From an uncultured Pseudomonadales bacterium (GTDB taxonomy: Bacteria; Patescibacteriota; Microgenomatia; UBA1400; UBA12108), in the NCBI GenBank assembly GCA_964502225.1, contig CAZCUC010000006.1, positions 1-55,220 of the forward strand: 55,220 nucleotides of DNA, read 5' to 3'. Positions 3,855 through 37,584 of this stretch are shown here, one piece after another (within the stretch, counting starts at the first letter, position 1; each line of letters starts with the position of its first letter). The notes under the pieces were generated by a model that was not told where the DNA came from, made no database searches, and saw only the letters and a program-made list of their open reading frames with translations. Both the position numbers and the translations under genes were made by a program.

Positions 3855-3863
3855 TGGTAAAAT
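3855..3863 (+). promoter_or_regulatory. Extended -10 element (TGgTAAAAT) for mreB; the transcript is near-leaderless
   Basis: tggtaaaat ends 8 nt before the mreB ATG (3872). There is no Shine-Dalgarno in between. Confidence 0.5.
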
Positions 3864-3871
3864 GAATAGAT

Positions 3872-4873: not shown

Positions 4874-4906
4874 TTTCAAATCATAAATTCTCCAATTCTC
4901 CAATCG
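4871..4906. repeat. Intergenic copy of the AT-rich mini-repeat
   Basis: Sequence taatttcaaatcataaattctccaattctccaatcg. It shares aaattctccaat with the copies at 61 and 6711. Confidence 0.7.
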
Positions 4907-4975
4907 AATGTAATTAATTTGTGTACATTTGAGAATTTGAGATTTATCATTGATATATTGGTATACTGTTGTGAT

Positions 4976-12055: not shown

Positions 12056-12187
12056 AGGTTCATTTTAGCAAGTATATTTGATCTGTCAAGATAATATGAC
12101 CATAAATAGATCTGGAGATCATGTAATATTGACGGTTATTATAAATTGCTATAGGATACGCGGAGTTAATTGTTAGAGAGGAGAAAT

Positions 12188-13703: not shown

Positions 13704-14026
13704 GAGATGAGACCTAGTTTTTTGAGTAGGGGAGGTAGGATGAGGAGAGTAAATGCACCCTGAATAAAGTTGGTGGTGAAGGAGAGGATGAGGGTGGTCA
13801 CAAAAAGGAAATAGTTTTGTTTTTCAGTAAATTTATAGAAATGTGCCAGCGAGTAGTACATGAGGAGATAAGCGATCGTGATCTGAGAGTCGAAGATGAC
13901 AGCGAAGGTAGAGGTCTCGATATTGTTGGAGAATGCCGAAATAAAGCCAGTGGCGACGGCAGAACCTAGGTAAACGAGAACTGAGATGATGAGTAGAGCG
14001 AGAACTTTAAGGGCAGATTTGAACAT
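13688..14026 (-). CDS. Small polytopic membrane protein, function unknown
   Basis: 112 aa with 3-4 hydrophobic helices. It is the last gene of the minus-strand string that follows the giant ORF. Confidence 0.5.
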   Translation of the reverse strand: MFKSALKVLALLIISVLVYLGSAVATGFISAFSNNIETSTFAVIFDSQITIAYLLMYYSLAHFYKFTEKQNYFLFVTTLILSFTTNFIQGAFTLLILPPLLKKLGLISHQTL

Positions 14027-14091
14027 ATATCCTCCTGGGTATTTGAGTATAGTTTAATAGTAGCAAGTTTTGGGGGGAATTGCACTAGGGA

Positions 14092-14604
14092 TTAAGGAAA
14101 ACCAGTGAGTTTAGATCTACCTGACTGTGATATTTTATCATGTAAGACTCTTTCGATTGTCATAATAGGTGTTTCACCTTCGGTGTGAGTGGCTAAGCCG
14201 AGATACTTGCCAATTTGGTCAATAGTGCTGTCTGGCGCCCATGATAGGTGCTCAATTGTGGGGACTGCGTGATCAATAGTGACTGCTCTATCTCTGCTCA
14301 ATTCTGGAATAATTTGCCGTGAATGTGATCTGATGTATCCCACTGGATCCGAGTCGTATTCTGCTTGGTTAAAATCTGGCTGGAGGAAAAAGTGATTGAG
14401 AAAAGTTTGTAGTCTGTCGTTGCGCTTGTCTGAGACAATATCTGCTGGCATAATACTCACATTGAGTGCAGTTCTGCGCTCTTTGGTTTCGCCAAGTCTG
14501 TCAAACCATGAGTCTGCCAGTCTGACGAGATCTGCTCTAGTAATTTCTGGAGACATAGACGGGTTTATATTCTTTTCAACCTCAACTGTTTCTAATACTG
14601 CCAT
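14092..14604 (-). CDS. Hypothetical protein
   Basis: 170-aa ORF, co-oriented with and downstream of the giant ORF. No motif recognised. Confidence 0.5.
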   Translation of the reverse strand: MAVLETVEVEKNINPSMSPEITRADLVRLADSWFDRLGETKERRTALNVSIMPADIVSDKRNDRLQTFLNHFFLQPDFNQAEYDSDPVGYIRSHSRQIIPELSRDRAVTIDHAVPTIEHLSWAPDSTIDQIGKYLGLATHTEGETPIMTIERVLHDKISQSGRSKLTGFP

Positions 14605-14679
14605 ATAGCTCGCTTAACAACCTTATAAGATTGACTGCTAATACTTTAACAGGTTTTGTTATTATAGTCATTATGTGTA

Positions 14680-15069
14680 CTACCATTTATTAACTTTTTG
14701 TATAACTCGTTCCAAGTTTCTTTTCATCAGTAATCTGTCGATTGTGTTTACTAGGATCCTTGATCCTAGGCTATTTTCCTTATCTGGTTCCAGGATAGTT
14801 CTTAGCTCATCTGGAGTAGTATTTTTGCCTAATCCTAGTGCTTCCATTTCTGGATGAACATAGGTGAGTAAGCACGGTAAACTGTCTTGTTCGTTTACTG
14901 CTGATAAATTGAAGGTGTAATCAATAGACAATAAATCAGTTAGATGAGTGATCAGCGGGTAAATAGGATTGCTTTTGTCTTTTCCGTCCCAGTACTGCCG
15001 AAAAACGCCTCTCAGGTTTGGTGGCCAAGCTTCAATAATTGAGTCTATCTTATCTTCTTTGTATAGCAT
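14680..15069 (-). CDS. Hypothetical protein immediately downstream of the giant ORF
   Basis: 129-aa ORF that starts 22 nt after the giant ORF stop, so it is likely co-transcribed. Confidence 0.5.
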   Translation of the reverse strand: MLYKEDKIDSIIEAWPPNLRGVFRQYWDGKDKSNPIYPLITHLTDLLSIDYTFNLSAVNEQDSLPCLLTYVHPEMEALGLGKNTTPDELRTILEPDKENSLGSRILVNTIDRLLMKRNLERVIQKVNKW

Positions 15070-15091: not shown

Positions 15092-18000
15092 CTACTTACC
15101 TAATATTCTAAGGTTAATAATTCTGTCGAGAGTTTTAAGATTAGAGCTATTGTGAGGAATGATAAATTGTCTAGTACGGCTATTCTTGTCAGCGTATACG
15201 TGAGTGACGGCTCTATTATCGGATGTGCCTATGCTTGCATTTGGACTAATTGGGTCGATATATACGATATGATTATCTGGAGTAACTATTATGTTGCCAA
15301 CCCAGATATCGTTCCAAGGGAGATTTTTGGTGTCCAGGATATTTGCAAAATTGATAATCTCTTGCATTAGGGAATCAGATAATCTGTCGTTGTTTTGCAG
15401 ATATTCTTCCAGAGTGATTCCGGGAATGTAATCTAGTACATATCCTACTAGGTTTTCGCTCTCTTTGAAATGAATTAAACTCTGAGCATTGGCAAAATAT
15501 TGCAATTGACTATTCTCTAGCTTGCCTTCGATATATTTCAAGTATTGGAACTCTTCTATTGTGAGATTGTATGCTTCTGGATTATTTTTTGCTATTTTGA
15601 CTACTACTTCTTTGCTAGTTAAGTTATTTGTAGCTAGATATACATCTCCATACGCACCTCCACCCAAGTGTTTTGTTATTGTAAACTGGTTGCTTTCGCT
15701 GTCTACTACAATAGCGGATTTTTCATTCACTTGATCTGCAGTAATAATAGGTATGTCGATGAAAGTCGGGATATTTGAGGGTTTAAATCCTGAGTTAAGC
15801 ATCAATTTGTTCTCTTTGATCATGTCGCTAATTGCTGATAGTGGTTTTTTCTCTAGGTAAGTCATTAATAGTTGTCGTCTATATTTTTTAATGGCATCTA
15901 GGTTTGCGATTAGGGATTCATCTCCAGTACTAACTATTAATTGTGCCTCGTTGTACGCCAGATCCTTGGCCAGCTTGTTGTCTTCGTTGTTGTAAGTCTG
16001 GAGATCTGTGTCGCCTGTGAGTAATTTCTCTATGGCAGTTTGGTAGTCAGTTTTTTTGGTAGTGAGCTCCTCTTGGGAAGTGATGACTCTGATTGTGATT
16101 AGACCGTTGCCAAACTCAGTTTGATTGGCATTCATCTTGGCGAGGACGTCTTTTTTATTTTCTTTGGTTAAATCAGCAATGAACTTGGCTAGTTGGAGAT
16201 ACTCTTGTTGGTTGAATAGTTGAGTGATATGGCGATGGGTTTCTGATCCAATAACTTCGATCCTAAATGATCCATCGGGGTTTAGTGTGAAAGTAGGGTT
16301 GTTGCCACTAATACGACCGACATTGAATGACCATTGTTGAGGATCGAGTTGGGTGGCAGCCAGGATGAGTGCGGTTTTGTCGTCAGGACCCCAGTCTGGG
16401 TTGTCCCGAATACTCTTTATGAGTGCTTGCTTGGTTTGATCAATCAAAATCTGGTATTGAGGATCATCTTTGGGGATTGTCTCTCCAATAGCCTTTAGGA
16501 TGCGCATGGCTTTGAGTGACTCAGGATAGCCATAGAGAAGCTCTGGAAGCTTAGTTTCGAAGGCATGGGTGTTGTCGGCAATGGTGACAGCAGAGAGGAT
16601 GAGATCTCTGATGTCTGAACTGGCTAGATTAATAGGAGCAATATCGTGTTTGAGGATAGCTTCATGAATAATGGCTACTTGCTCTTTGTTGAATAGGCGA
16701 GAAAGGGGATGGTTGAGGTTGTTTTCTAGTTGTTCACGGAAATATCTGGCAGAGAGGACGTTGTGGCCGTTGTCGATGCCGAAGCGACTGGTGTTGATCC
16801 CCTCACGAACAGTGGGGTTGGTATATCCTAGGTCATGTCGATCTTGGATAACCATCGCTGCAAGATAGTCGATGGCCTTAATGTCTTTGCCTTGAGCTTT
16901 GAGTTTGTCGAGAATGTCAAAAGTGACTTTGGTATTGTGTTCAAATAAGTGACGCAGGCCATGATCCCCCAGGAGATTCTCGGTATCGACATAGTCTTGG
17001 TATGCCAGAAGGTGGATTTCTTCGATGAGCATGGACTGAATCTCTTGCATGGAGATGGAACCTGGACCTGAGAGCTTGACGCTTCCTGCAGCGATAGCTT
17101 CTTCCATCTTGCCTAGATAGAGGTTGATGAAGTCGTGGAGGAGGGCATGTTTGACAGAATTGTTCCGCTTTTGATAATTGTCCATAAGCCTGTCAGCTTC
17201 TATAAGTGCATGTTGCTTGATGTCATTGATCTGCATATTTTGAGTAGAGACAATTTTCACAGGCTTGATATAGGATGTCATGGCAGCTTGATGGACTTTT
17301 TGGCTTGACGAAGCTGCGTTGTTGTAAATATCATAGAGGTCTTTGGCATCGGTACGAGAGGTGACATAAGCTCTTTCACTCGTGCTCATTTGCGAAGATT
17401 GGATGGGGGTAAGTGAGGGAGTAGAGAGACCACTTCGCAAGTTGGTTAATGTAGGATTGATGCTTTTGATCCAGATGATGAAATCTTCATAATTATCGCC
17501 AATAAATGAGAATATAGTGCTATATGGTTCTGGAAGTAGTTCTACCGTATCTGGTAGATCAGCAATAAATTTGGTTATTGGCTCGGCAAATTTTATTCCC
17601 AGATATAAGAACTTGTTGAGCTTGATTGGTGGTTTTTCGACCTTGACAGGAATGAGTGATTCTCGTGGAGTATTGTTCTGATTATTTTGTGCATAATACT
17701 CCTCAAATAACTGTCTTCTCTTGGCCTTGATGGTGGATATCTCTAGGAGGACTGAGCTGTCGTCTGGAACGGTAACGAGGAGGGCTTCTTGGTACGCCAG
17801 ATCCTTGGCCAGCTTGTTGTCTTCGTTGTTGTAAGTCTGGAGATCTGTGTCGCCTGTGAGTAATTTCTCTATGGCAGTTTGGTAGTCAGTTTTTTTGGTA
17901 GTGAGCTCCTCTTGGGAAGTGATGACTCTGATTGTGATTAGACCGTTGCCAAACTCAGTTTGATTGGCATTCATCTTGGCGAGGACGTCTTTTTTATTTT

Positions 18001-21000
18001 CTTTGGTTAAATCAGCAATGAACTTGGCTAGTTGGAGATACTCTTGTTGGTTGAATAGTTGAGTGATATGGCGATGGGTTTCTGATCCAATAACTTCGAT
18101 CCTAAATGATCCATCGGGGTTTAGTGTGAAAGTAGGGTTGTTGCCACTAATACGACCGACATTGAATGACCATTGTTGAGGATCGAGTTGGGTGGCAGCC
18201 AGGATGAGTGCGGTTTTGTCGTCAGGACCCCAGTCTGGGTTGTCCCGAATACTCTTTATGAGTGCTTGCTTGGTTTGATCAATCAAAATCTGGTATTGAG
18301 GATCATCTTTGGGGATTGTCTCTCCAATAGCCTTTAGGATGCGCATGGCTTTGAGTGACTCAGGATAGCCATAGAGAAGCTCTGGAAGCTTAGTTTCGAA
18401 GGCATGGGTGTTGTCGGCAATGGTGACAGCAGAGAGGATGAGATCTCTGATGTCTGAACTGGCTAGATTAATAGGAGCAATATCGTGTTTGAGGATAGCT
18501 TCATGAATAATGGCTACTTGCTCTTTGTTGAATAGGCGAGAAAGGGGATGGTTGAGGTTGTTTTCTAGTTGTTCACGGAAATATCTGGCAGAGAGGACGT
18601 TGTGGCCGTTGTCGATGCCGAAGCGACTGGTGTTGATCCCCTCACGAACAGTGGGGTTGGTATATCCTAGGTCATGTCGATCTTGGATAACCATCGCTGC
18701 AAGATAGTCGATGGCCTTAATGTCTTTGCCTTGAGCTTTGAGTTTGTCGAGAATGTCAAAAGTGACTTTGGTATTGTGTTCAAATAAGTGACGCAGGCCA
18801 TGATCCCCCAGGAGATTCTCGGTATCGACATAGTCTTGGTATGCCAGAAGGTGGATTTCTTCGATGAGCATGGACTGAATCTCTTGCATGGAGATGGAAC
18901 CTGGACCTGAGAGCTTGACGCTTCCTGCAGCGATAGCTTCTTCCATCTTGCCTAGATAGAGGTTGATGAAGTCGTGGAGGAGGGCTTCTTTTGAGGCGTT
19001 GTTGCGCTTGCCGTAGTCGCCCAGCAATCGATCTGCTTCGTAGTAGGCTCGCTGTTTTACTTCGGCTATATTGCTAGATTTAGCTAGTCTTCCTGGCTCG
19101 ATGTATGCATTCATGGCAATTTGGTGATTCTCGTAGCTAGACTGAGGGTTGGAATAAATATCGGCAAGCTTGGGAGCCGTCTCTTTGGTCTTCTCTAGAT
19201 AATCTTCTTCATTTTGGATGAAAATAGAAGTAGAGAGGAGATTGGATGTGAAATTAATGTTGCCAACTTTCCTAAAGAAGGAGTTTAAGAGGGCTGCAGA
19301 ACGAGTCTCTAGCTCCAACATAAGTTGGGCACTATCGGAGATTATTCCGACTGGTCGCTTCAAGTCTCCATAACTACGATTGAGAAAAAGTTGTAGGTTG
19401 AAAAGTGGACCAGAGATATATTTGGTGACAAAATTTGATTTTTTGGTTGTTGGGAGAGCTAGCTGCGCTATGATATAGGTCTCTGCCTGATCTAGTGCAT
19501 CGTAGTGATCTTGGATATTTTTGGCGGCGACTGTGCCATTGACGGGGAGTGTCTTGGCGATCGCCTGTAGAGCATTGTGGAGCTGGTCTAGACCAGAGAT
19601 GTCGATTGTTTCCTCGCCACCCTTAATATCTTTGCCTACCTGATCTAGAAGTTTCCGTACTTCATTAATTTTTTGTAGGGCCACGTTGTAGTCGAAGGGT
19701 TCGTGAGTGATGTCACCTTTGAGCGCGAAAGCGATTATTTCGAGTGATTTTTGGATGTGTGGTTTATTGAATGTGTGGTCGTTGAGCTCTAGGATTACTC
19801 GATTGCTGTCTGTTCCAGTAGTTGCACTGATCCCGTTTGTAACTAGTTTCTGTATTGGCACAGCGCAAGATGAGCAGTCGGAGGAGGTAGATTGATTGAC
19901 TGGAATTCTGATCATAGCACCTGACCAGTCGTCGTTTTGAAAGATATTTTGGTTTGAGTTGATCATGTCAAACAACTCAACAGTACTAGTTGTTTTGCTC
20001 AGATACTCTCTGAGTATGTTTGGATCTTTAATATTTTTTACTAAACCATCACTTGTTGCAAAGAAGATATCGCCAGGTTCGGCTTTCCCAAAGAATACGT
20101 ACGGAGTAGTGGCTGTATCAGTACTACCTCCTAACTGATATGGCGAGACAACCCCTTTTTCATCTATATTTTGTTGGCTATATGCTTGATCATTTTTGGC
20201 ATAACTAAAATAATTTGATGGATGAATTAACGATTGGTAACCTGGATCACTTGCAAACACGCCATTCGTAGTTAGAAGATAAAGAGTTCCTTTTCTCAGG
20301 AGAAATATGGGTGAATCACCAAGTCCAAAACCGCCGTAGTATTGAGCTCCGTTTTTTTCGATTAGTGAGAGGCCGCTTATTGTGGTGTTCTTGTCTAATT
20401 TAGTTAAGTCAGCTTTACCAGTAGACGTGCGTGGCCTGAAAGATGGTTGAATTTTGCTCAGATAGTTTTTTACTATATCGTCGTGCAAGGTTTGGACAAA
20501 TTGTGTGGCTTTACTAGTCTGCATATTCGCGAATATATTCGAAAAAATCTGACTAAGACTCATGATATTTGAGGTAGAAGTGGTCCTCAAAAGTAATTGT
20601 GTCGCTGTTTTGGCACCGAGATGACTATCTTTAGCATTCCCTACACCGTCACCAACTGCGATTGATCTTGTTTCTTGGTTGTCACTGGCGTAATCTTGTG
20701 AGACATCTTTTGCTGGAAGTTTTTGGATATAGCTAGAGGTTGTTTTGATATTTGCTTGTTCTGCTATGGGGGTTGCCCGCTTTGTTGTGGTCGAGCTAGT
20801 AGGGATGATGCCAAGCTTGATGAGGTCCCGGATGATAGAAGAGTTGGGGGTGTTTTGGTAGACGGTAAAGAGGGTTTTTGTACCCGGTATGTAGTGACCT
20901 ACTTCATTTAAGTTGGGTAAAGGGTCAATAAATACAACTAAGCCAGATTTGTTAATCATGATATTGGTCGGCCAAATATCTGTCCAAGGAATGTTTTGCT

Positions 21001-24000
21001 CATCTAGTGTTTTACCAAACTCGATTATCTGATCTATCTGTTCCTGAGTTAGTGAATGGTCATTGAGATATTCAGAAAGAGTGACTCCATCTACATGCTC
21101 CATTACATACCCAATAATATTGTCGTCGACATTTGATTTGAGGGTGGATATAGCTTTGGCAAAATGATTGTTTCCAGGGAGTCTGCTCTCGGCAGATTTC
21201 AGGAAATCAAATTCTGACATGGTTAATTCGAAGGCGTCTCGAGCATATGAAGTAGAATCAAAGTTCGGTATCATGCTTGTTGTTTCAGGAGGAATTTTTT
21301 TGATTATTTTGATCGCGACAGTCTTGCCTGTTTGCGTGTGCGTGGCCTGATAGACATCTGCGTAGCTACCACTACCGAGGTGACCAGTTATCTCATATTC
21401 GTCTTGACTATTGGCTTTATATTTCGAGCCGATTTCAATGTTTGAGTCTGAAACTGACGGTTTGTACTCTGAGCTATATCGGATCCTGGGGAGCAATGGG
21501 TAGTCGTAGACTACTTCGTGCTTGGATTGGTTGATTTGTACCCCTCCGCCCCAACCGACGCCATTTTCATCGATGCCTATTTTGTAAACCTCTTCTTCCT
21601 TACTGGCGTCTTTGAAGATACTCACGACGTAAAACTGAGGTCCTGAGGGGTTTGCTTGGCTTTGTGGGGTGAGTGTGTAGCTAATTTGGGAGTAGGGGAC
21701 ACCAATACTGTCGGCGTATTTACGTACACCGGAGGGGAGATTATCTGTTAATCCAGGAAATTGAATGATACCTACTTCGATCCCTAGGAAGCGATCAAGC
21801 CACTGGCGGAATCCAGATCTATTTTCTTGGGCTATAGGCTGCTTAGTTGTGACATAGAGATCTATTGGTTCTACTAGCATGGTATCTTGAGACGCAGTAG
21901 TTACGCTGATTAGGTATGGACTAGCGTCGCTGGCAGTTGAAAGCTCTTCGGCAGTGGGGAAATGGTTGGATGAGAGTTGGTTGAGGCTTTCGTGCCTGTT
22001 TTCTCTATCTCCAGTTATTGCGATGTATTCGTTTCTTTCTTTGTTGAAGAAAGTGCGAGTTCCGTCTGGTCTAACCAATACGACGGTTTGGCCTTCGTCT
22101 AAGTACTGCATCAAGGATTTGTTGTCTGACGGGAATATTTTAGCAAGGTTCAAGGTGTGATTATTCGTAAATGTCCAGTTGATAGCCGGATTACCAATAA
22201 GTGCTTCGATCTTGGTTTGAGGAGTAAATTCTCGATATCTGGCTAGCTCAAAATGATCGTACAATAGGCCGGAGGTACGAATCACTGACTCTAGCGCAAG
22301 GACTTCGGGGTTATCGGAATTGAATAGGAAAGCGGCAACATAATGCATTGTAGCTTCCTTTATGTCTAGATTAGGATAGCGAGATTTGAGTATGCCTAGT
22401 AGTATGTCTTTTGCAATGTTTCCAGTGTTTATCGCGGGATTGGGGATGTGGGTTTGACCTTCAAGATCTTCGATAATGTTCGATACATTGTCTTTTAGGT
22501 TATCGTTTGGAGCAAAGCGGAACACGAAAGAATTGGATATATTTGATATATAAGTTTCAATATTTTGCATCACTTGGTTGAATCTAGATAGGTGATCGGT
22601 AAAGATGAGTTGGTGACTGGTGACATCATTGTGGATTCTCAGCGCGCCATCTATAGTATAAATACCATACGATTGATCTCCGATTAATATCGTAAGATAT
22701 CCTTCTTCTGTTACTACAATCCCTTCGGCTGGAATTTCGTTAACTCCAAAGAAACTGTGTGTGAGGACTGGCTGATTGCCTGTCGGCTTGAGGAGATATC
22801 CAGCTTCGGTAACCGTGAGTTCTATCGCATCATTTAGAGCAGTGTAACTTTTTGGAGTAGATGAGGACGGGTTACTGAGGGTAGTGTATTGTGGTGTTTG
22901 ATTGGCAATCGTTGATGCGAGATAGTCTACTGAAAGATTGGTCAGAAAGATGTTTACGTTTTCTAGTACTGAGCGTTTGGGCACAGAGTAGGAATTGGGG
23001 ATATTATCCAAATCAATGTTGTCGCGGTTGGTAATGAGCCATTCTCTGATCTCATTCATCGTTATTGACTGTTGAGTTGGTCTGATTCCACTCTGAGGAG
23101 TGGCGATGGACATATATCTCACGCCGCGGAGATTGGTAAAGGTAACGACTTTACCTGATTTTAGCGGTAGGGTGATGGTCTGGAAATCGGGGAGCGCGAT
23201 GACATTTATTAGGGACCTTGATCTGGATAAGAAGAAGAGGAGGGGATTGGGGCCGGCGCCTTTTTCACTCCTTGGTGAGCGGATCCAGTTGGAGAGATTG
23301 GTTATGATCCTAGTTATAAAAGATGGTGTTACTTCTTTGTTAGATGGCGTGGTTAGTGCTCCAACAGGAAGTGTATTGCCGTTGAAAACGATAGAAATGG
23401 GCGTTGTGTTTGGAGGTATTAGTTCTAGGAGAGCATCGCTAGTATACGCTTGCGAGGTTTGAGTGCCTTCTGCTGATCTGTGATTGATATTTATTTCTCC
23501 GCCTAGTGACTCTATTACCACAACTTCGCCGTCAGGTAGTTCAAAGCGAAGGTTGCGGAAAATATCGAGTTCTACGAGATCAGTTATAGGGGTTGGTGTG
23601 TCAAGAATTAGTCCCGCAGAAGTCAATTGGTTGGTTGTAAGATTATTCCCATTGTAACTGATTCTCTTGATGTCATTGAAATCTGATGGAAGTAGATTTG
23701 GATCAAATTCACTGTGAGATGAGACACCGCTAGCAGGGGTGATATCTATGCCATTTTGCGTGACGGTGTACACATCGCCATCATCAGTTTCGATGATCAA
23801 CTGTGTAAAGCTAGGGAGGGTAACGAGATTTTGGATCGAGATGGCACGAGGAATGGTGAGAACTGGAACAATGCTAGTTGGCATCGCTGGTGTAGAGTGA
23901 ATGATAGGCGAGATATTGCCATCGAGATCAATGCTACTGGGGATGGTGGTAAAGAGGGCACCTGTGATGATGGAGTGTTTTTGGGCAGGATTTAATTCTA

Positions 24001-27000
24001 GGGCAGTCACTCGATCTATTGCCTGTGTTTGGGTAATAGTTCCATTGTCGATCGCAATCTTGAGAGTCTTAATAGCTTTGGTTGTAGCACTGGGGAAGAG
24101 CCATTCGATCGGATTAAATTTCCCTGTGGTTGGGCTATATCCTCGTTTGATCTCAAGAGTAGACCAGTCGACTGGTGGAGTGGCCTTTTTCGAAGTACTG
24201 GGAGTTTGAGCGATAGTTTCTGTTTTTGGACCCTCGGTGCTGGCAATGTATTTACTTTCTGATTCTGGCGAGATCGACTTTCTGTGAGCGTCTGCGCCAG
24301 ACTGAAGATCATTGGATAGAAGGAAAGAGTCTCGACTATTGATAGCCTCTAATGGGCCAAACGGGGCATATTCGAAGCCATTGGGGTTGTTTTTAATGAA
24401 GTCACGATTGGCTTGCATGCGGGCAAAAGCTTCTGGATTTTCTCTAGATATTTGTTCGAGGATGGCTTTGTTTGCGGGATCTTTGAAAATATCCTGCATT
24501 TTTTGAGAACCTTCTCTGGCTATCTCGTTGCGACGATCGATAGAGAGTTGGGCAACATCTTTGGCACTGAGACTGCGACCATCTTTGCCGGCGAAGAAGA
24601 CGTCAATTAAAGTCTTCGATGCCCAGTCGGCGATCTTAGTATTGGTACTTCTGACTAGATCGACTATGGGCTGGCGAGCCTGGGCTTCGACTAGATTGTT
24701 CATGACACTGGTGGCATTGTTTTTGTTGATAGTAGCCTCGTATTTTTCCATGTTGGTGCGCCAGGTTTTGAAGTCAAAATTATGATTGGCATTTGCTAAC
24801 CTGGATTCGGCAGTTCCAGATGTAGCCATGGGTTCTTTGGTACCACCGATGACAATACTAAATGTCTCCATGTCGAGGGTATTGCCACGATTGCCACGAG
24901 AACCTTCTTGGGCGATTGAGTAGGTTGGTTGACCTTCGACAAAGATAGGAATAAATTGGACGTTTTCCGGGGTTTTGATGCTGTCGCCAGTCGAGCCACC
25001 TTTGTCGATGATGAGGATGAGGTCTGGTTCACCGTTTTGGAAGCGTTCTTGGATAGCTTGCTGAGTAGTCTCTGTTTTACGTACAACTTTACCGTTTGCA
25101 TCGAGAGTAATTTCAAAGTAAACGCTACCTTTCTCCTCTGCAAAATATGTTTTCTTTGGCTCGCCTGCAGTTTTTCGACCACGTTCGATAGCCTGGGCAA
25201 ACTCTGTGCTAGACATATTTTCGAGAGCATGGGCGATTTTGACACTACCTTTGACCTTGCGACTGCCAAACATATCCTCAACAAGTTGGAGCCCTTCTTT
25301 GGTTGTAGAGACGGCATGGGTATTCTCCTGTTTGATGAGAGCTCCGTCTAGAGCATCGGCTGTATTTACAATCTTGACAGTAGCATCGGAGCTAGCGTGG
25401 ATCCGCATCCCTAGAACGGTCTCGGCCGCACCCCTCATGCCACCCAAGGTACCGGTGACTGCACTTTGACCATTCCTGGCGTCTGCAGAGACCAGTTTGA
25501 CGTAATCCATGATGGTGGATTTGATGGCTTTGGTGCTAGTGGTGCTAAGTCCTACGGTATTTGGAGTCTGACCATTTCTGATAGCCCCTACATATTCCAT
25601 GGTTAGATACATGTCACCGGAGAAGGTTTGGCCTTCGCTAAGAGCTCCGTTTTTGGGGATGGAAACCTCACTTTCGTAGCGCGTCTCTCCAGGTTTGGCT
25701 TGATTTTTTAGAGTTGAGTCAACCGCGCGTTCATAGCCTGTATCTAGACTCTTGGCATAAGTATCGATCATGCTAATCTGGTCGAGCACATGTTCGATGG
25801 CGGCGGCATCTTTACCAGTTCTACTGACTAACTGTTCGATGGTTTCAAATCTATTGTTAGATACTTCGTTAAAGAATTCGGCGCCATTTTGTTTCCTGAG
25901 AGAGTTGGTGATTCTGACTTCGGCTTCTGAGCTAAATCTAGCGGTCTCTAGAGCTACGCCGTCGGGGGAGAGGAGTCGATCAGCCAGAGCGGACTTGCCA
26001 CCGTCCCAGTTTTGATGAGCATAGGCATCACCATTTACAAGAATAGCTTCTTTGGTGAGGATTTCTGCTACCTCTTTGGCGGCCAGTTCCTTACTGGCTT
26101 CAGCCACTTTTTTGTTGCCTTTTTGGTTGACACCTGCAACGTTTGGATCGAGTGTAAGCTGGGCTTCATCGTAATATGTACCAACATTTTTAGTCATTTT
26201 GTCGAGGATGGCTACGGATGGTTCGTAGCTTGGGTGAGTACGATCGAGAGTATTGTTTTGAAGGAAGTTTACGTCGTTTGGGCCGGTGACAATGTATTTT
26301 GACTTAAGTAACGCCTCGACATATCCAGGTTCTCCAAGCCTGTATACATCAAGGATAATGACGCTGTCTCCAACCGCCGTCATCTTGTCTAGTTGAGTGC
26401 GGATCGAGCTCTGCTGACCTTCTTTGGTGAGGTATACACCAGTTTCGTTGCCAAAAATTTCAAGCCGGGCTTTGAGGGTCATGGCTCCAACCATAGTTTT
26501 ACCACCTGCGGTAGTTAGCTCAACCGCAGTAAATTTGCCACTGAGTAGTTTTTGGAAAGTATCGATCTGATTGGCGCGAGAAGAACGTGACCCATCCTCG
26601 AAGATGGCTAGACGATGCTCGGTATCTCTAATAATATCAGTAACTTTTTGCTGTACTTCCGAGGTAAGACCTAGCTCAGCTGGGATCACAATTTCTTTCT
26701 TGACAGAGAGATCAAGGATATTTTTTTCTAAACTGGTCAAATATGTCTGATCCGCTGTTGAGCCTTTGGCTTTTTCCACAGCAATTTTTTGCTCTAAAGT
26801 CCTAATTTCGGTGAGAATATCAAGTTTTTGCAGTGCTTCTTGGACTTCGTTCATGCGCTTGAGTCCGTTTTGTTTATCGGCCAAAACAGTGGTACGTAAC
26901 TCGTCGAGAACGAGGTTATACTCGTCAACTAATTTATTCCGATTACTAAGCTCGGGAATGGCTTGGAGTTCTTTGATCCTGGCCTTCTGTTCAGCTGAAC

Positions 27001-30000
27001 GATTTGATTTGGCGATGGTTTCTAATCTTGATAATTCTCTGGAGTTGGCTAATTTTTCGTGAGCGAGTGTTAATTTTTCGATTTCGGCTTTTTGACCGTT
27101 GCTGGCGAGTTCAGTGAGAGTTTTGTTGGCTTCATTTTTCGCTTGAGCGGGATCTTGGGCAATTCTGGTACTAGATTCTTCAGACAGAATAGATCTTTCT
27201 TGATTGGCTTTCTCTCTGCTGATACGAGCGAGATTCTCTTCGAAGGTTGTTTTTTCGGTAGAAGTTTTGAAGAGGGGATCTAGGATAAGCTCAACTCCGG
27301 TGGGGGCAGTTGCCTTTTTGCTAAAGAGGGCTTCACGTAGGCGAGTGAGGAGGGGAGGTGGTGGTGGAGGGGTGAGGGCGGCGATTTGCCGTGCTACTTC
27401 TGCGTGTTTGACTGTCGCTAACGCTAAATCTTCGCGAGCGGAAGCAAGAGACTCTTCCATTTGACGGCGAACAGAGCTATTAACTTTTTCGAGATTGTTT
27501 TCTAGTCCAGTAACTCGTTCTCTAGCCGTAGTAAGCTCGGCTTCGCGGAGTGCGAGTTCTTGTCGAGCAGTAGTGAGTGTAGGATTTTCTACAGGTTTGC
27601 TAAATACTTCTCGAAGGCGAGTGAGGACGCCAGAAGATTTTTCGTTAGCTGGTGGGGCCTGAGGTTTGACTGGGCTTTCGGCAATTTCTGGAGGTTTAAG
27701 TGCTGTGCCTGCCAATTCTTGAGCGCGAGCATATTCAATCTCTGCTTTGTTTAGATTTTCTCGCAGCTGTGGAGTGACCGCTTCCTTGTTGTTTTCGAGT
27801 GTAAGCCTGGCAGCATCAACTTTAACCTTGGCTTGTTCGAGTCTGATTTGCTCGGGTGATTTGATTTCGGTGAGGGTAGGGGTCGAGGCTGTTTTGGGTC
27901 CGGTAAGTTTGGCAACGAGCGGATCTTGGACAGCACCGGAGATACCCATGGCGCACATGGACATGGTGTCGATATTGGCAGGGCCCTCGAATACTTTGGA
28001 GCAGGCACTAATTCCAAAAGTAATGGCAGAAGCAGTGTGAATACCTTGAAGTGCTGAGCCTCCAGTTAGTGCAACTGTTCCAAGCTTGCCTTCGATCTGA
28101 GCAAGTTTTGCTACCAGCCCAAAGTTGGTACTGGCCAGCTTGCCAAAGGAAGCGGCGGCCATGAGGATGCCCGAGGTACAGTCGAGAGAAGTCGAGTTCT
28201 CTCCGCAAGCTTCGTAGGCCATTTTGCCAAAAGTCACAGCACCAAGGAATTCGGTTCCGATATTGCCTGCCACTATGGTTTTTTGAGCAAGAGAGAGTGT
28301 GGCCCCAGCTTCGGCTACGCCGACTAGGGAGTTGGCTAGTCCTAGGCCGGTACCTGCGACGGAGATGGTGGCAATCGCGATTGCAGTATGACAGGCCTCG
28401 CTCCCGGGAGCTTGGGTGCAAGCGTCGGTGGCGGTGCCAATCATCTGGGTGGAGGAAGCAATGCCAAATCCGGTGCCAAGGAATGCTCCTGCACTGGGAG
28501 CGAGAGGGAGGGCAACTGCAGTCGTGACGACAAAGGCGGCGTCGCCGCCCTGGATGATGCCTCCTGAGATTACCCCCCATTTATCGATAGGATTTTCTAA
28601 GCCCATGGCTGAACCAAATGTATCGGCAGATACAAGTCCAAAGGTAGCATTTGACATGCCAATCGACAGTATGGTGCGGGTCATGCCGTTTCCATTTGCT
28701 GACTCTAGCAATAGGTCATTGCCACGTTTGAAGCGGCCGGCTGTAAAGTTGTTCCAACCGAGGACAATATTGGTGCCAAAGTCTTGGCGGAGCTCTGTGA
28801 GGGCGGCTTCTTGGGCTACCCAGTCGGTGTTGGGGTCGGCCGCGAGTCGGTCGTAGTTGGCAGGGTCCATGTTTTGCAGGGTAAAGGCGATTCTCTCCTG
28901 TGACATGCTATTTTGGTAAATCTTGTTTTTCTGATTTTGGATATTGATCAAAGTGAGTTCTGGGTCGTTTGTGTAGGCGCTGAGGCTGGTCAAAGATTCG
29001 TCTACATTGTTGCAGTTGGCCCCACCTAGAGCGTTGCAGGTGGAGGCTAGGTAGAGCTCTTCTAGCTGGGGTACATAGGTGGCACCTGTTTGAGAGTTGT
29101 TGGTCAGTTTAGTGGCAGTTTTCTGTGCGTATTGTTGACACTGATCAATTGAGTTGGCCGGCGAACTACGACATGTTTTAAAGGCAAGGTCATACTCTGT
29201 CTGGTAGTTAACGGGAGCCGCCTGACTAAGTTTTTTCTTGGTTTGCTGGTTGGCGATGGCTTCGCAGTCTCCACGGCCCTGAGTATTTGTCATACAGGCC
29301 AGGTACTCTGTTTGATAAATGGCTTGGGTATCGATGGCGGTGCTCGTGATATTACCTGTTTGGCCCAGCTCGTACCTGCTAATGGCATAGTTGGCCTGTT
29401 TTTGCCGGTTGAGTTCTAATGCCTTTTCCGCACTAATGCCGATATCTTTGAGTAATCCTCCATCGAGTAAATATTTACATCGATCAGAACTGATACCTCG
29501 GCAATACTCCTGCGAAAGCTGTGCGCTAGTGGTGGTGAGATATTTTGCCACCATTTGGTTTTGCGCTAGTTGTTGTTTGGCTTGAGAGGCTAGATCTTTG
29601 TTGGTGAGTTTGTTTAAATAATCCTCGCGGACGAAGTTCATCCTACAGTCGCGGTCGTCACCACAGATGCTATTGGCGATATCGGAATTCGATTTGGAAG
29701 AATCGGCGAAGATTTTGACGAGTTCTAGATCTTTTTTGTAGTTGGCGATATTGGTATCTCGCGTGCTCAAGAGCTCGTGGAGGGTGGCGGAATCAGTGAC
29801 TAGTCCTCTCAGATAAGACTCGGCGGTCAAATCGCGGCATTCGCCAGGGTGAGCTGGGTCGCAACCGGCCAGGGCTTTGAGATCGGTAGTAGGACTCAAG
29901 AAAGCTTGAATTTTGGCCTGATATGCCTCCTGTGCTTGAGAGTTTTGTTGTTGATTGGCGATGATTTCTTCTTTAACTGCGGTATCAAAAACAGCAGAAT

Positions 30001-30814
30001 TGGCGAGGATGGTGGTGACAGCGGCTGAGACAGCGTCTTGGCAATTAGTCGTACAACTGGAGCCAGTCGACTTGAGGATCTCTTGGTCACTCATGGCAGA
30101 CACTTGGCTCGCTACCACCTGACTATTACGCGCGGCGGCTGACTGAGTATCTCCGAGAGCTAGGACTCTGAGGCTACCATCGGCTACTTTGGTGGTGCCT
30201 GCGACTGAGCCGTCGGCATAGACATAACCGTAACGTCCGACTTCGGTGCCGTACTGGGCGATGTAGGCGGCAGACTGGGTAGGGGCAGTAGTGGTTGTCG
30301 TAGTGGTAGCTGGGGGAGTTTTGGTTGGGATAACTGCCGGCACTTCGAGACCTGCGGCTTTGATGGCGTTTTTGATGACCTCGATGCTGGCACCTTTGTT
30401 CGACGCAATAATTGCCGCTAGTTGCCCGGCTTTTTCGGCATCGCTACCGATAAAGGCGTTGCTATTGGAGCCTGTCCCGCCTCCAGCATATCCGCCATAT
30501 CTAGCCTGGCGTTCATTGACTCCACCACAAAAACCTCTTTCGTCGTTTGTCGTACACATAATTTCGAGTGGTTTGGGGAGATAGGAATTGAGCCAGTCTT
30601 TGAGTTTGGTGGGCATGGTGGCTACGGGGTGGGAATGAGAGACATTGGCGCGATAAATGCCCCGTTCAAAGACGAGAGCAGGGATCGCGTGGGGGTAGTC
30701 GAGGAGGTGGTTGGTCAAGGGTTTGAGCTGAGTAGGTGCGGCAATTTGTGCCCAAAATAGGCCAAAGATCGCAACAACAGCGGCCATCAAAAATGGCGTC
30801 TTTTGAGAGGTCAT
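15092..30814 (-). CDS. Giant (about 5,240 aa) membrane-anchored multidomain protein: SecA/SF2-like ATPase, 2 minimal kinases, PP2C and 2 HD modules
   Basis: Uninterrupted 15.7-kb frame. Motifs: AVELTTAGGKTMVGA / YYDEAQ / AQEGSRGNRGN (SF2). LGSGSYADVY-VAIKIIKK-WTDIWPTNIMI-VVFIDP (kinase 1). IAVGDGVGNAKD-GLGDSPIFLL-FFATSDGL (PP2C). HGLRHLFEH...VIQDRHDLGY (HD, twice). LGGGAYGDVY-VVVKIAK-WNDIWVGNIIV-VYIDP (kinase 2). Start set at ATG 30814, because the TTG at 30850 is the -35 box. Confidence 0.9.
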   Translation of the reverse strand: MTSQKTPFLMAAVVAIFGLFWAQIAAPTQLKPLTNHLLDYPHAIPALVFERGIYRANVSHSHPVATMPTKLKDWLNSYLPKPLEIMCTTNDERGFCGGVNERQARYGGYAGGGTGSNSNAFIGSDAEKAGQLAAIIASNKGASIEVIKNAIKAAGLEVPAVIPTKTPPATTTTTTTAPTQSAAYIAQYGTEVGRYGYVYADGSVAGTTKVADGSLRVLALGDTQSAAARNSQVVASQVSAMSDQEILKSTGSSCTTNCQDAVSAAVTTILANSAVFDTAVKEEIIANQQQNSQAQEAYQAKIQAFLSPTTDLKALAGCDPAHPGECRDLTAESYLRGLVTDSATLHELLSTRDTNIANYKKDLELVKIFADSSKSNSDIANSICGDDRDCRMNFVREDYLNKLTNKDLASQAKQQLAQNQMVAKYLTTTSAQLSQEYCRGISSDRCKYLLDGGLLKDIGISAEKALELNRQKQANYAISRYELGQTGNITSTAIDTQAIYQTEYLACMTNTQGRGDCEAIANQQTKKKLSQAAPVNYQTEYDLAFKTCRSSPANSIDQCQQYAQKTATKLTNNSQTGATYVPQLEELYLASTCNALGGANCNNVDESLTSLSAYTNDPELTLINIQNQKNKIYQNSMSQERIAFTLQNMDPANYDRLAADPNTDWVAQEAALTELRQDFGTNIVLGWNNFTAGRFKRGNDLLLESANGNGMTRTILSIGMSNATFGLVSADTFGSAMGLENPIDKWGVISGGIIQGGDAAFVVTTAVALPLAPSAGAFLGTGFGIASSTQMIGTATDACTQAPGSEACHTAIAIATISVAGTGLGLANSLVGVAEAGATLSLAQKTIVAGNIGTEFLGAVTFGKMAYEACGENSTSLDCTSGILMAAASFGKLASTNFGLVAKLAQIEGKLGTVALTGGSALQGIHTASAITFGISACSKVFEGPANIDTMSMCAMGISGAVQDPLVAKLTGPKTASTPTLTEIKSPEQIRLEQAKVKVDAARLTLENNKEAVTPQLRENLNKAEIEYARAQELAGTALKPPEIAESPVKPQAPPANEKSSGVLTRLREVFSKPVENPTLTTARQELALREAELTTARERVTGLENNLEKVNSSVRRQMEESLASAREDLALATVKHAEVARQIAALTPPPPPPLLTRLREALFSKKATAPTGVELILDPLFKTSTEKTTFEENLARISREKANQERSILSEESSTRIAQDPAQAKNEANKTLTELASNGQKAEIEKLTLAHEKLANSRELSRLETIAKSNRSAEQKARIKELQAIPELSNRNKLVDEYNLVLDELRTTVLADKQNGLKRMNEVQEALQKLDILTEIRTLEQKIAVEKAKGSTADQTYLTSLEKNILDLSVKKEIVIPAELGLTSEVQQKVTDIIRDTEHRLAIFEDGSRSSRANQIDTFQKLLSGKFTAVELTTAGGKTMVGAMTLKARLEIFGNETGVYLTKEGQQSSIRTQLDKMTAVGDSVIILDVYRLGEPGYVEALLKSKYIVTGPNDVNFLQNNTLDRTHPSYEPSVAILDKMTKNVGTYYDEAQLTLDPNVAGVNQKGNKKVAEASKELAAKEVAEILTKEAILVNGDAYAHQNWDGGKSALADRLLSPDGVALETARFSSEAEVRITNSLRKQNGAEFFNEVSNNRFETIEQLVSRTGKDAAAIEHVLDQISMIDTYAKSLDTGYERAVDSTLKNQAKPGETRYESEVSIPKNGALSEGQTFSGDMYLTMEYVGAIRNGQTPNTVGLSTTSTKAIKSTIMDYVKLVSADARNGQSAVTGTLGGMRGAAETVLGMRIHASSDATVKIVNTADALDGALIKQENTHAVSTTKEGLQLVEDMFGSRKVKGSVKIAHALENMSSTEFAQAIERGRKTAGEPKKTYFAEEKGSVYFEITLDANGKVVRKTETTQQAIQERFQNGEPDLILIIDKGGSTGDSIKTPENVQFIPIFVEGQPTYSIAQEGSRGNRGNTLDMETFSIVIGGTKEPMATSGTAESRLANANHNFDFKTWRTNMEKYEATINKNNATSVMNNLVEAQARQPIVDLVRSTNTKIADWASKTLIDVFFAGKDGRSLSAKDVAQLSIDRRNEIAREGSQKMQDIFKDPANKAILEQISRENPEAFARMQANRDFIKNNPNGFEYAPFGPLEAINSRDSFLLSNDLQSGADAHRKSISPESESKYIASTEGPKTETIAQTPSTSKKATPPVDWSTLEIKRGYSPTTGKFNPIEWLFPSATTKAIKTLKIAIDNGTITQTQAIDRVTALELNPAQKHSIITGALFTTIPSSIDLDGNISPIIHSTPAMPTSIVPVLTIPRAISIQNLVTLPSFTQLIIETDDGDVYTVTQNGIDITPASGVSSHSEFDPNLLPSDFNDIKRISYNGNNLTTNQLTSAGLILDTPTPITDLVELDIFRNLRFELPDGEVVVIESLGGEININHRSAEGTQTSQAYTSDALLELIPPNTTPISIVFNGNTLPVGALTTPSNKEVTPSFITRIITNLSNWIRSPRSEKGAGPNPLLFFLSRSRSLINVIALPDFQTITLPLKSGKVVTFTNLRGVRYMSIATPQSGIRPTQQSITMNEIREWLITNRDNIDLDNIPNSYSVPKRSVLENVNIFLTNLSVDYLASTIANQTPQYTTLSNPSSSTPKSYTALNDAIELTVTEAGYLLKPTGNQPVLTHSFFGVNEIPAEGIVVTEEGYLTILIGDQSYGIYTIDGALRIHNDVTSHQLIFTDHLSRFNQVMQNIETYISNISNSFVFRFAPNDNLKDNVSNIIEDLEGQTHIPNPAINTGNIAKDILLGILKSRYPNLDIKEATMHYVAAFLFNSDNPEVLALESVIRTSGLLYDHFELARYREFTPQTKIEALIGNPAINWTFTNNHTLNLAKIFPSDNKSLMQYLDEGQTVVLVRPDGTRTFFNKERNEYIAITGDRENRHESLNQLSSNHFPTAEELSTASDASPYLISVTTASQDTMLVEPIDLYVTTKQPIAQENRSGFRQWLDRFLGIEVGIIQFPGLTDNLPSGVRKYADSIGVPYSQISYTLTPQSQANPSGPQFYVVSIFKDASKEEEVYKIGIDENGVGWGGGVQINQSKHEVVYDYPLLPRIRYSSEYKPSVSDSNIEIGSKYKANSQDEYEITGHLGSGSYADVYQATHTQTGKTVAIKIIKKIPPETTSMIPNFDSTSYARDAFELTMSEFDFLKSAESRLPGNNHFAKAISTLKSNVDDNIIGYVMEHVDGVTLSEYLNDHSLTQEQIDQIIEFGKTLDEQNIPWTDIWPTNIMINKSGLVVFIDPLPNLNEVGHYIPGTKTLFTVYQNTPNSSIIRDLIKLGIIPTSSTTTKRATPIAEQANIKTTSSYIQKLPAKDVSQDYASDNQETRSIAVGDGVGNAKDSHLGAKTATQLLLRTTSTSNIMSLSQIFSNIFANMQTSKATQFVQTLHDDIVKNYLSKIQPSFRPRTSTGKADLTKLDKNTTISGLSLIEKNGAQYYGGFGLGDSPIFLLRKGTLYLLTTNGVFASDPGYQSLIHPSNYFSYAKNDQAYSQQNIDEKGVVSPYQLGGSTDTATTPYVFFGKAEPGDIFFATSDGLVKNIKDPNILREYLSKTTSTVELFDMINSNQNIFQNDDWSGAMIRIPVNQSTSSDCSSCAVPIQKLVTNGISATTGTDSNRVILELNDHTFNKPHIQKSLEIIAFALKGDITHEPFDYNVALQKINEVRKLLDQVGKDIKGGEETIDISGLDQLHNALQAIAKTLPVNGTVAAKNIQDHYDALDQAETYIIAQLALPTTKKSNFVTKYISGPLFNLQLFLNRSYGDLKRPVGIISDSAQLMLELETRSAALLNSFFRKVGNINFTSNLLSTSIFIQNEEDYLEKTKETAPKLADIYSNPQSSYENHQIAMNAYIEPGRLAKSSNIAEVKQRAYYEADRLLGDYGKRNNASKEALLHDFINLYLGKMEEAIAAGSVKLSGPGSISMQEIQSMLIEEIHLLAYQDYVDTENLLGDHGLRHLFEHNTKVTFDILDKLKAQGKDIKAIDYLAAMVIQDRHDLGYTNPTVREGINTSRFGIDNGHNVLSARYFREQLENNLNHPLSRLFNKEQVAIIHEAILKHDIAPINLASSDIRDLILSAVTIADNTHAFETKLPELLYGYPESLKAMRILKAIGETIPKDDPQYQILIDQTKQALIKSIRDNPDWGPDDKTALILAATQLDPQQWSFNVGRISGNNPTFTLNPDGSFRIEVIGSETHRHITQLFNQQEYLQLAKFIADLTKENKKDVLAKMNANQTEFGNGLITIRVITSQEELTTKKTDYQTAIEKLLTGDTDLQTYNNEDNKLAKDLAYQEALLVTVPDDSSVLLEISTIKAKRRQLFEEYYAQNNQNNTPRESLIPVKVEKPPIKLNKFLYLGIKFAEPITKFIADLPDTVELLPEPYSTIFSFIGDNYEDFIIWIKSINPTLTNLRSGLSTPSLTPIQSSQMSTSERAYVTSRTDAKDLYDIYNNAASSSQKVHQAAMTSYIKPVKIVSTQNMQINDIKQHALIEADRLMDNYQKRNNSVKHALLHDFINLYLGKMEEAIAAGSVKLSGPGSISMQEIQSMLIEEIHLLAYQDYVDTENLLGDHGLRHLFEHNTKVTFDILDKLKAQGKDIKAIDYLAAMVIQDRHDLGYTNPTVREGINTSRFGIDNGHNVLSARYFREQLENNLNHPLSRLFNKEQVAIIHEAILKHDIAPINLASSDIRDLILSAVTIADNTHAFETKLPELLYGYPESLKAMRILKAIGETIPKDDPQYQILIDQTKQALIKSIRDNPDWGPDDKTALILAATQLDPQQWSFNVGRISGNNPTFTLNPDGSFRIEVIGSETHRHITQLFNQQEYLQLAKFIADLTKENKKDVLAKMNANQTEFGNGLITIRVITSQEELTTKKTDYQTAIEKLLTGDTDLQTYNNEDNKLAKDLAYNEAQLIVSTGDESLIANLDAIKKYRRQLLMTYLEKKPLSAISDMIKENKLMLNSGFKPSNIPTFIDIPIITADQVNEKSAIVVDSESNQFTITKHLGGGAYGDVYLATNNLTSKEVVVKIAKNNPEAYNLTIEEFQYLKYIEGKLENSQLQYFANAQSLIHFKESENLVGYVLDYIPGITLEEYLQNNDRLSDSLMQEIINFANILDTKNLPWNDIWVGNIIVTPDNHIVYIDPISPNASIGTSDNRAVTHVYADKNSRTRQFIIPHNSSNLKTLDRIINLRILGK
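15953..17146 (-). repeat. Copy B of a 1,194-bp perfect intragenic direct repeat (HD module)
   Basis: Identical by eye to 17792-18985, offset 1,839 bp. The ORF track shows identical shadow ORFs at 16671-16868 and 18510-18707. Confidence 0.9.
17792..18985 (-). repeat. Copy A of the 1,194-bp perfect intragenic direct repeat (HD module)
   Basis: Encodes the same 398 aa (ALLHDFINLYLG...NEDNKLAKDLAY). The flanks of the two modules are homologous but diverged. Confidence 0.9.
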
Positions 30815-30820
30815 GATACC

Positions 30821-30850
30821 AATGTACACCCCTGGAAAATCGCTTGTCAA
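30821..30850 (-). promoter_or_regulatory. Promoter of the giant ORF: TTGACA-18-TACATT, with the ATG 6 nt after the -10 (leaderless)
   Basis: On the minus strand, ttgaca is at 30850-30845, tacatt at 30826-30821, and the ATG at 30814. Confidence 0.5.
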
Positions 30851-37479: not shown

Positions 37480-37584
37480 AGATAGGTATTCGTCAAGTTG
37501 ACATATTAGTGTCAATTATGTAATCAAGCTATTTTAGCAGAGTGTGTCAAGATTATGGGGTTATTTAGTACACAAGGAGTGTGT

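Follow-up and report, generated by a model that had tools for sequence, protein, structure and literature searches.

The stretch of DNA analysed here, contig CAZCUC010000006.1 of assembly GCA_964502225.1 (55,220 nucleotides, hereafter the window), carries on its minus strand one uninterrupted 15.7-kb gene for a giant protein of 5,240 residues. An N-terminal hydrophobic anchor is followed by a cysteine-paired segment, a hydrophobic block, a helical linker, an ATPase module with a predicted SecA-like fold, and an array of kinase, PP2C and HD-like modules (Table 1). The reading favoured here, with a probability of roughly 0.45, is a membrane-anchored platform whose own SecA-like motor would export its extracytoplasmic segments, the kinase/PP2C/HD-like array lying in the cytoplasm. 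A first reading of the sequence, made without database searches (the sequence-only reading), had listed these parts; most of the list holds, and calling the motor SecA-like was a good judgement. That the protein is real, giant and membrane-anchored is supported by orthologues in independent assemblies, by a ratio of non-synonymous to synonymous substitution (dN/dS) of 0.165, and by a conserved anchor. It belongs to a rare family of giant proteins for which no earlier description was found; the literature search returned no paper describing giant SecA-type proteins in Patescibacteria.

The motor module and its family

An exhaustive HMMER scan with residues 1381-2580 returned 23 relatives from 1.84 billion representative proteins, and a word-indexed search with the family profile returned 2 proteins. 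Thirteen of the 23 relatives are giants of 3,004-7,842 aa, each with the same motor module of about 815 aa. The module is placed 830-2,400 aa from the N-terminus (at least 1,284 in 12 of the 13) and is the sole part detectably homologous across the entire family. When full-length relatives are inspected by eye, the same layout precedes the motor: an anchor at the N-terminus, then a region rich in Cys, a hydrophobic block whose helices have Cys pairs between them, and a long charged helical stretch. The content after the motor differs by lineage and is reshuffled even among close relatives. It includes FHA domains (P0006, P0007, P0010, P0012 and P0013, by Pfam), Fic in P0012, Metallophos in P0006, and HD-like modules in several members. 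Peptidoglycan hydrolases are found at the far C-terminus, namely Amidase_2 and VanY in P0006 and SLT in P0013 (Pfam), together with a CHAP-like domain in P0009 recognised by eye from motifs alone.

The motifs of superfamily 2 (SF2) ATPases are invariant in 12-14 sequences of the module: E-L-T-T-x-G-G-K-T (I), DE (II), TGT (III), TGD (V) and Q..R..R (VI). Their order is that of E. coli SecA, and motifs II and III are separated by an insertion of 237 aa, compared with 181 aa in E. coli. An AlphaFold2 (AF2) model built from 12 family sequences has a predicted local distance difference test score (pLDDT) of 76.5 and a predicted template-modelling score (pTM) of 0.70; a run on a 2-sequence alignment was unusable (pLDDT 37). 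The model contains two alpha/beta lobes and, past the second lobe, a 39-residue helix (630-668) and further helices. In a Foldseek search against the PDB, the 13 best matches are all SecA or SecA2 (E 4e-12 to 3e-7), with alignments over the whole target length. The helicases XPD, DinG and RIG-I form a second tier, 4-5 orders of magnitude behind in E-value. In this model, the motor is SecA-like in fold.

The N-terminal part and the proposed topology

The N-terminal hydrophobic anchor of the sequence-only reading stands: it is conserved in P0002, L003 and L009, and it is probably uncleaved because a proline comes after the AxA-like site. The presumed ectodomain behind it (aa 27-750) has no Pfam match. 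The series of paired-Cys motifs noted earlier amounts to 22 Cys in 11 close pairs, all inside aa 87-954; the only other Cys of the giant form a single CxxC (3647/3650). Nine of the 11 pairs are invariant across four orthologous sequences from three species, which are otherwise about 39% identical, and the remaining pairs are gained or lost pairwise among the four. Because of this pattern the pairs appear to behave like disulfides, and the N-terminal part is placed provisionally outside the cell.

The Gly/Ala-rich hydrophobic block was likewise called correctly (aa ~750-975; G 13%, A 17%). In a crude Kyte-Doolittle scan of the giant, two segments alone reach 1.5, aa 8-26 and aa 761-779; the rest of the block scores lower, and no hydrophobic segment lies past aa ~975. 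All full-length relatives have an analogous block. Since hhalign gives a weak match, at 32% probability, between the window block and that of distant relatives, homology across the family is unproven, the architecture being what appears to be shared. The linker that follows had been described as about 400 aa of coiled-coil and low-complexity sequence. The PPPPP is present, in an E/A/L-rich stretch, and the coiled coil is a putative one, the linker being charged and helix-prone. Homology of the linker is limited to the nearest relative.

The orientation of the C-terminal part is suggested by relatives. In every relative with peptidoglycan hydrolases, a strongly hydrophobic helix lies just upstream of them. 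Hydrolase-free members, including the window giant, have no hydrophobic helix after the motor, except P0014 and P0016 (domain content not scanned). This distribution suggests, as the simplest family topology, an N-terminal part outside, a middle array in the cytoplasm and an optional C-terminal tail outside. Because the hydrolases of relatives sit behind an extra transmembrane (TM) helix that the window giant does not have, its enzyme array probably faces the cytoplasm, and only the first ~750 aa would be exposed at the cell surface. The proposal of a new cell-surface or host-interaction machine is narrowed to a new form, in the Candidate Phyla Radiation (CPR), of giant SecA-domain membrane proteins, the surface part probably being confined to that N-terminal segment.

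In the proposed mechanism, the uncleaved anchor and about 720 disulfide-stapled residues would lie outside the cell, and the Gly/Ala-rich block of TM hairpins would span the membrane. The cytoplasmic part would then comprise, in order, the ~400-aa helical linker, the ~830-aa SecA-like ATPase, an unassigned region, a kinase, the PP2C domain, the two HD-like modules and the second kinase. Tethered beneath the membrane by the helical linker, the motor would most likely act in cis, threading the extracytoplasmic segments of its own polypeptide by ATP hydrolysis. The variable C-terminal enzymes would form a membrane-tethered array for Ser/Thr phospho-signalling and phosphohydrolase activity. West-Roberts et al. 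(2023, 10.1101/2023.11.21.568195) have proposed that the SecA-like domains in giant proteins of Omnitrophota serve self-export.

Counter-evidence and alternative readings

Several results weigh against the platform reading. Pfam, NCBIfam and PDB sequence profiles give no SecA match to the motor. Pfam at E<=10, applied to six segments and to 12 motor sequences, gives no consistent match, and no match at all to PF07517, PF01043 or PF07516. An hhalign comparison with E. coli SecA aligns the Walker A region alone, at 3% probability. The Foldseek TM-scores against SecA are low (0.3-0.4). In BFVD, DUF3638 proteins of giant viruses match the motor equally well or better (E 1e-12 to 1e-10, TMq 0.36-0.51). 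Because of the TM-scores, the Walker A-only alignment and the DUF3638 matches, the motor is termed SecA-like here and is not assigned to the SecA family; the motor of the sequence-only reading is thus borne out by predicted structure and by motif order, but not by sequence profiles. Two further points concern export itself. A motor located C-terminal to the segment that it exports would have to work post-translationally. The C-terminal part of the window giant contains only 2 Cys in 4,280 residues, compared with 0.52% in neighbouring genes (Poisson P ~5e-8), and such strong depletion is more usual for exported proteins.

The structural matches also allow the motor to be read as a nucleic-acid SF2 helicase or a DUF3638-type ATPase. 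The giant would then be a membrane-tethered nucleic-acid or conflict-system enzyme, akin to the polyvalent proteins of conjugative elements and phages. The second-tier helicases point in this direction, as do the DUF3638 proteins and viral helicases that rank first in BFVD. Near relative P0003 lie a DUF87/TrwB-like ATPase and a Fic gene, and the kinase domains resemble PADLOC defence-system kinases. However, SecA leads these helicases clearly in E-value with the whole target covered, the large motif II-III insertion matches SecA, and Pfam and NCBIfam reveal no nucleic-acid-binding, methylase, primase or MuF domain. PHROG matches are not significant and chromosomal synteny is conserved. The helicase or DUF3638 alternative is consequently regarded as highly doubtful. 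The DUF3638 proteins, annotated as 'ubiquitinyl hydrolase 1', are the best BFVD structural matches of the motor; nevertheless, they come from eukaryotic viruses, share no architecture with the giant, and their Pfam family does not match the motor. No characterisation of DUF3638 was found in the literature search.

A different role for the same parts is effector delivery: the anchor, TM block and motor would form an exporter, and the Cys-free, variable C-terminal array would be unfolded cargo bound for the surface or for the host cell of this epibiotic bacterium. Strong Cys depletion favours this idea and extends through the family: the motor is Cys-free in all 13 relatives, and the C-terminal parts contain 0-0.26% Cys. 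A conserved CS[SD]C landmark recurs in these regions; the motif C-S-[SDN]-C is found in the otherwise Cys-free C-terminal parts of P0005, P0007-P0013 and P0016, where xxVR and a helix-like stretch often come next. The high variability of the C-terminal arrays, the status of Fic, kinase and phosphatase as common effector activities, the CPR affiliation of the organism and the PilN/PilO genes upstream of the giant in two relatives are further points in favour. Nevertheless, in relatives it takes an extra TM helix to bring peptidoglycan hydrolases to the side of the membrane opposite the FHA/phosphatase arrays, the combination of FHA, kinase and PP2C is a classic cytoplasmic triad, and no pore-forming or needle component and no processing site was identified. 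Effector delivery, the main alternative, is judged unlikely, although credible. Less probable is a specific device in which one polypeptide performs secretion or injection, with the TM hairpins as a conduit through which the motor threads the Cys-free array into a host, and with payloads swapped by recombination in each lineage.

The C-terminal array and its integrity

Under the platform reading, the C-terminal array would be the signalling part of the protein. It is preceded by a stretch of about 950 aa that the sequence-only reading had described as beta-rich repeats. Three short copies of a motif are present (aa 2336, 2419 and 2544), but self-BLAST of the region gives no significant repeats, and no family match was found in Pfam. 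Residues 2216-2674 and 2867-3017 are conserved in P0001/L009.

The two minimal kinases are supported. The Pfam Pkinase match (E=6.7e-17) falls over two stretches and covers profile positions 1-137 of 263 only; PK_Tyr_Ser-Thr matches at E=2e-6, NCBIfam and PADLOC also detect the domains, and one NCBIfam match is weakly Bud32-like (E=0.0018). The copies are 38% identical to each other, and both keep GxGxxxxV, (A/V)(I/V)K, 'DIWxxN' and 'IDP'. Because the C-lobe is absent, they are read as atypical minimal kinases. The PP2C domain is likewise confirmed, with PF13672 at 27.2 bits, above the cut-off of 24, and with the Asp-containing motifs VGDGVGN, GLGDS, TSDGL and NDDW in the translation. PDB sequence searches with the whole protein and with 2-sequence, 12-sequence and HD-module profiles gave weak kinase matches or none.

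The two putative HD modules consist of a duplication of about 500 aa, the copies being 88% identical over 501 aa. Their invariant DHGxxH, HDxGY, H and H columns are shared by 5 sequences, including three more family members. No Pfam or PDB profile matches the module, so that the duplication stands and the HD identity, carried by these motifs, is tentative. The core of the duplication is exact over 1,194 nt (15953-17146 = 17792-18985). Because this exact core lies inside diverged flanks, it points to gene conversion or to an assembly problem.

The latter possibility would mean that part of the C-terminal ~2,200 residues is an assembly artefact, produced by a chimeric join or by an incorrect number of HD-like copies, and that the true protein is shorter or rearranged. 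Besides the exact tandem duplicate within the open reading frame (ORF), no independent assembly spans aa 3018-5240, the last 2,190 aa had no match when scanned against metagenomes, and the contigs of the nearest relatives break inside the gene. Against this, no stop interrupts the frame over the 6.6 kb of the C-terminal part, and the repeat flanks have diverged as expected of two real copies. A homologue of the HD-like module occurs in P0001/L009, the kinases are diverged paralogues, and there is no break in composition. An artefact of this kind is considered very improbable.

The gene, its orthologues and its chromosomal position

The reported uninterrupted 15.7-kb ORF is confirmed. Minus-strand positions 30850 to 15092 form one open frame without an internal stop, and the ATG at 30814 aligns with the starts of the orthologues P0002 and L003. 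Orthologues are present in three independent assemblies, and they are collinear with the window gene. L003, contig CAZBML010000037.1 of a metagenome-assembled genome (MAG), encodes the first 1,990 aa, stop-free and at 90% identity; the dN/dS value (Nei-Gojobori) was obtained from this comparison over 1,984 codons. The NCBI MAG GCA_037143435.1 has the gene in two pieces, P0002 and P0001, on separate contigs. On the JGI contig L009 these pieces form a single ORF, which is at least 3,274 aa long and collinear with aa 1-2674 of the window giant; P0002 is near-identical to L009. The contigs of the nearest relatives end within the giant gene.

Synonymous divergence (dS) between the window and L003 is very uneven: the hydrophobic block has a dS of about 1.04, the ectodomain 0.49 and the coiled-coil linker 0.11. 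These strong differences between segments suggest recombination or mosaic ancestry inside the gene. The L003 contig is labelled as an 'uncultured Pseudomonadales' MAG yet is ~90% identical to the CPR locus of the window, and it is probably mis-binned.

A promoter of its own, driving a leaderless transcript, had also been proposed. The sigma-70-like match TTGACA-18-TACATT stops 6 nt before the ATG and is 100% conserved in L003, where the ~85 nt directly before the ATG are identical; the leaderless transcript itself is putative.

In relatives, the locus reads ribosomal L1/L10/L12, a gene of ~580 aa, a divergent Dus gene and the giant. The window likewise has Dus at 30959, ribosomal L10 at 39.6 kb and L1 at 50.8 kb. 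A look-up of exact matches to the window Dus protein returned none. Because this neighbourhood is conserved, the comparison of loci indicates a chromosomal gene that is inherited vertically. The suggested likeness to polyvalent effectors of mobile elements did not hold up. A PHROG scan gave no significant match (best E=0.0016; no match had a known function or a matched stretch that qualified), and Pfam and NCBIfam revealed no MuF, methylase, SNF2, primase or lytic transglycosylase domain in the giant. A mobile-element origin was rejected on the grounds of conserved synteny, housekeeping neighbours and the PHROG result, and a defence role was rejected because the PADLOC matches of the giant are generic kinase-domain matches only.

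The window MreB is 82% identical to Collierbacteria/Microgenomates MreB, and the source organism is consequently placed in the CPR (Microgenomates type). This agrees with the earlier suggestion of a small-genome, host-dependent lineage. CPR bacteria have genomes of roughly 1 Mb. A single gene thus takes up 15.7 kb in a genome of the ~1-Mb class, and in relatives, on contigs of 0.87-1.17 Mb, it takes as much as 23 kb; such an investment makes it likely that the giant is central to the host-dependent lifestyle.

Comparison with known systems

The combination of parts matches no characterised family, as had been claimed, although there is a precedent for its architecture. Giant transmembrane proteins with divergent SecA_DEAD/SecA preprotein-binding domains have been described in Omnitrophota ('Archaeovorin' and dockerin types) and in some Actinobacteria (10.1101/2023.11.21.568195; 10.64898/2026.06.07.730766). 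The giants of West-Roberts et al. exceed 30 thousand aa, contain enzyme arrays that include Ser/Thr phosphatases, and sometimes have adjacent pilus or secretion genes (10.1101/2023.11.21.568195). As in the window giant, a TM anchor is followed by a highly divergent SecA-like ATPase and long arrays of unrelated enzymes, Ser/Thr phosphatases among them, in one long polypeptide, and the hosts are ultra-small host-dependent bacteria. This likeness is one of architecture as described. The window family differs in lineage (CPR/Microgenomates), in size (3-8 thousand aa, 5-20x smaller) and in its few TM helices. It also has a long helix after the second ATPase lobe, a Cys-paired ectodomain and a kinase/PP2C/FHA theme. 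The SecA_DEAD domain of Omnitrophota giants is detectable by Pfam, whereas the window-family motor has no PF07517 or other Pfam match in 12 of 12 members. Giants with a built-in SecA-like motor would therefore extend past Omnitrophota and Actinobacteria into the CPR, and Pfam-based surveys would have missed them because this form of the motor is invisible to domain databases. With a size of 3-8 thousand aa, a conserved and modellable ATPase, a disulfide-marked part that is probably extracellular and a variable payload, the family offers a practical way to study what SecA-like motors encoded in cis do, be it self-export, effector delivery or something else.

SecA and SecA2 are the best solved-structure matches of the motor over full target length, and motif I reads E-L-T-T-x-G-G-K-T in the motor and E-M-R-T-G-E-G-K-T in SecA. 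Nevertheless, identity is only ~10-12%, motifs V and VI are 32 residues apart in the motor compared with 65 in SecA, and lobe 2 of the motor has an extra beta insert. Unlike SecA, the motor is embedded in a 5,240-aa membrane protein.

Polyvalent proteins and polymorphic toxins, in which SF2 ATPase modules also occur (PMC3482391), resemble the giant in their huge polypeptides, conserved N-terminal 'delivery' parts and recombining C-terminal enzyme modules. The giant differs from them as a chromosomal, syntenic gene without a PHROG match and with an N-terminal membrane anchor and ectodomain; Pfam finds no known toxin, pre-toxin or immunity domain in it.

Hanks-type Ser/Thr kinase systems with PP2C/FHA modules, such as PknB/PstP, likewise combine kinase and PP2C in one system, with FHA and Metallophos appearing in relatives of the giant, and join an extracellular part through the membrane to cytoplasmic phospho-enzymes. 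In contrast to these, the kinases of the giant are truncated (N-lobe, catalytic loop and 'IDP' replacing DFG) and are separated from the membrane by more than 2,000 residues, and no PASTA or other known sensor domain is present.

Features of the window and neighbouring genes

Table 1. Positions of the giant gene, its parts and adjacent features in the window (nt, nucleotide; aa, residue of the giant)
Feature	Position (nt)	Strand	Residues (aa)	Basis
Giant gene, coding sequence, 5,240 aa + stop	15092..30814	-	1-5240	Uninterrupted frame
Sigma-70-like promoter match TTGACA-18-TACATT, possible leaderless transcript	30821..30850	-		Consensus match
N-terminal hydrophobic anchor	30737..30793	-	8-26	Kyte-Doolittle 2.17
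Presumed ectodomain, 8 Cys pairs	28565..30736	-	27-750	Cys-pair conservation
Gly/Ala-rich hydrophobic block, 3 Cys pairs between hydrophobic helices (putative TM hairpins)	27890..28564	-	751-975	Composition
Charged helix-prone linker, PPPPP at 1149	26660..27889	-	976-1385	Composition
SecA-like SF2 ATPase module	24170..26659	-	1386-2215	AF2 model, Foldseek, invariant motifs
Motor motifs			I 1432-1440; II 1549-1550; III 1786-1789; V 1940-1946; VI 1969-1976	Invariant residues
Region with three short repeated motifs	21425..24169	-	2216-3130	Motif copies
Minimal protein-kinase domain 1	20936..21397	-	3140-3293	Pfam Pkinase, NCBIfam, PADLOC
PP2C-type phosphatase domain	19910..20707	-	~3370-3635	PF13672 (PP2C_2)
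CSSC motif (C3647, C3650), sole Cys of last 4,280 residues	19865..19876	-	3647-3650	Composition
HD-like module, copy 1	17696..19189	-	~3876-4373	Repeat
HD-like module, copy 2	15857..17359	-	~4486-4986	Repeat
Minimal protein-kinase domain 2	15281..15682	-	5045-5178	Pfam, NCBIfam, PADLOC
Three small co-oriented ORFs (129, 170, 112 aa) downstream of the giant	13688..15069	-		ORF list
SIMPL/DUF541 gene	13050..13703	+		Pfam; recurs downstream of the giant

The three small co-oriented orphan genes of the sequence-only reading exist as ORFs without Pfam matches. No counterparts were found beside the giants of relatives, and their membership in the system of the giant is uncertain. The SIMPL/DUF541 gene lies just downstream of the giant at three differently arranged loci: in the window, in L004 (24768-25529) and in L008 (17760-18524). 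The window copy matches that of L004 at E=3.5e-9; L004 and L008 are distant relatives. At the same two loci, PilN/PilO pilus-assembly genes and a Pur_ac_phosph_N protein of ~570 aa precede the giant (L004 6451-9872, L008 331-3294), an arrangement not seen in the window.

Other observations concern the window as a whole and individual genes. Nearly all 2-kb bins of 1-55220 show a strongly positive GC skew (+0.1 to +0.3) regardless of gene orientation, an unusually strong and uniform strand asymmetry. A stand-alone Fic-domain gene is located at 7256-8272 (-); Fic occurs within the giant in P0012 and adjoins it in L006. The small ORF at 12170-12652 (+) has a Cys-rich N-terminus (HVHGKGCGCGKFDYGENGACGYCGN) and no Pfam match. 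Upstream of the giant locus, at 36388-38367, a Trans_reg_C ORF (375 aa, -) is divergent from an AAA_16/STAND-like ATPase ORF (270 aa, +). The ribosomal protein L1 ORF at 50842-51774 (-) encodes 310 aa, of which the Pfam match spans residues 176-303 only, so that there is either an apparent N-terminal extension of ~175 aa or a mis-called start. In L007 (4817-7357), a SufB gene carries an intein containing a LAGLIDADG endonuclease.

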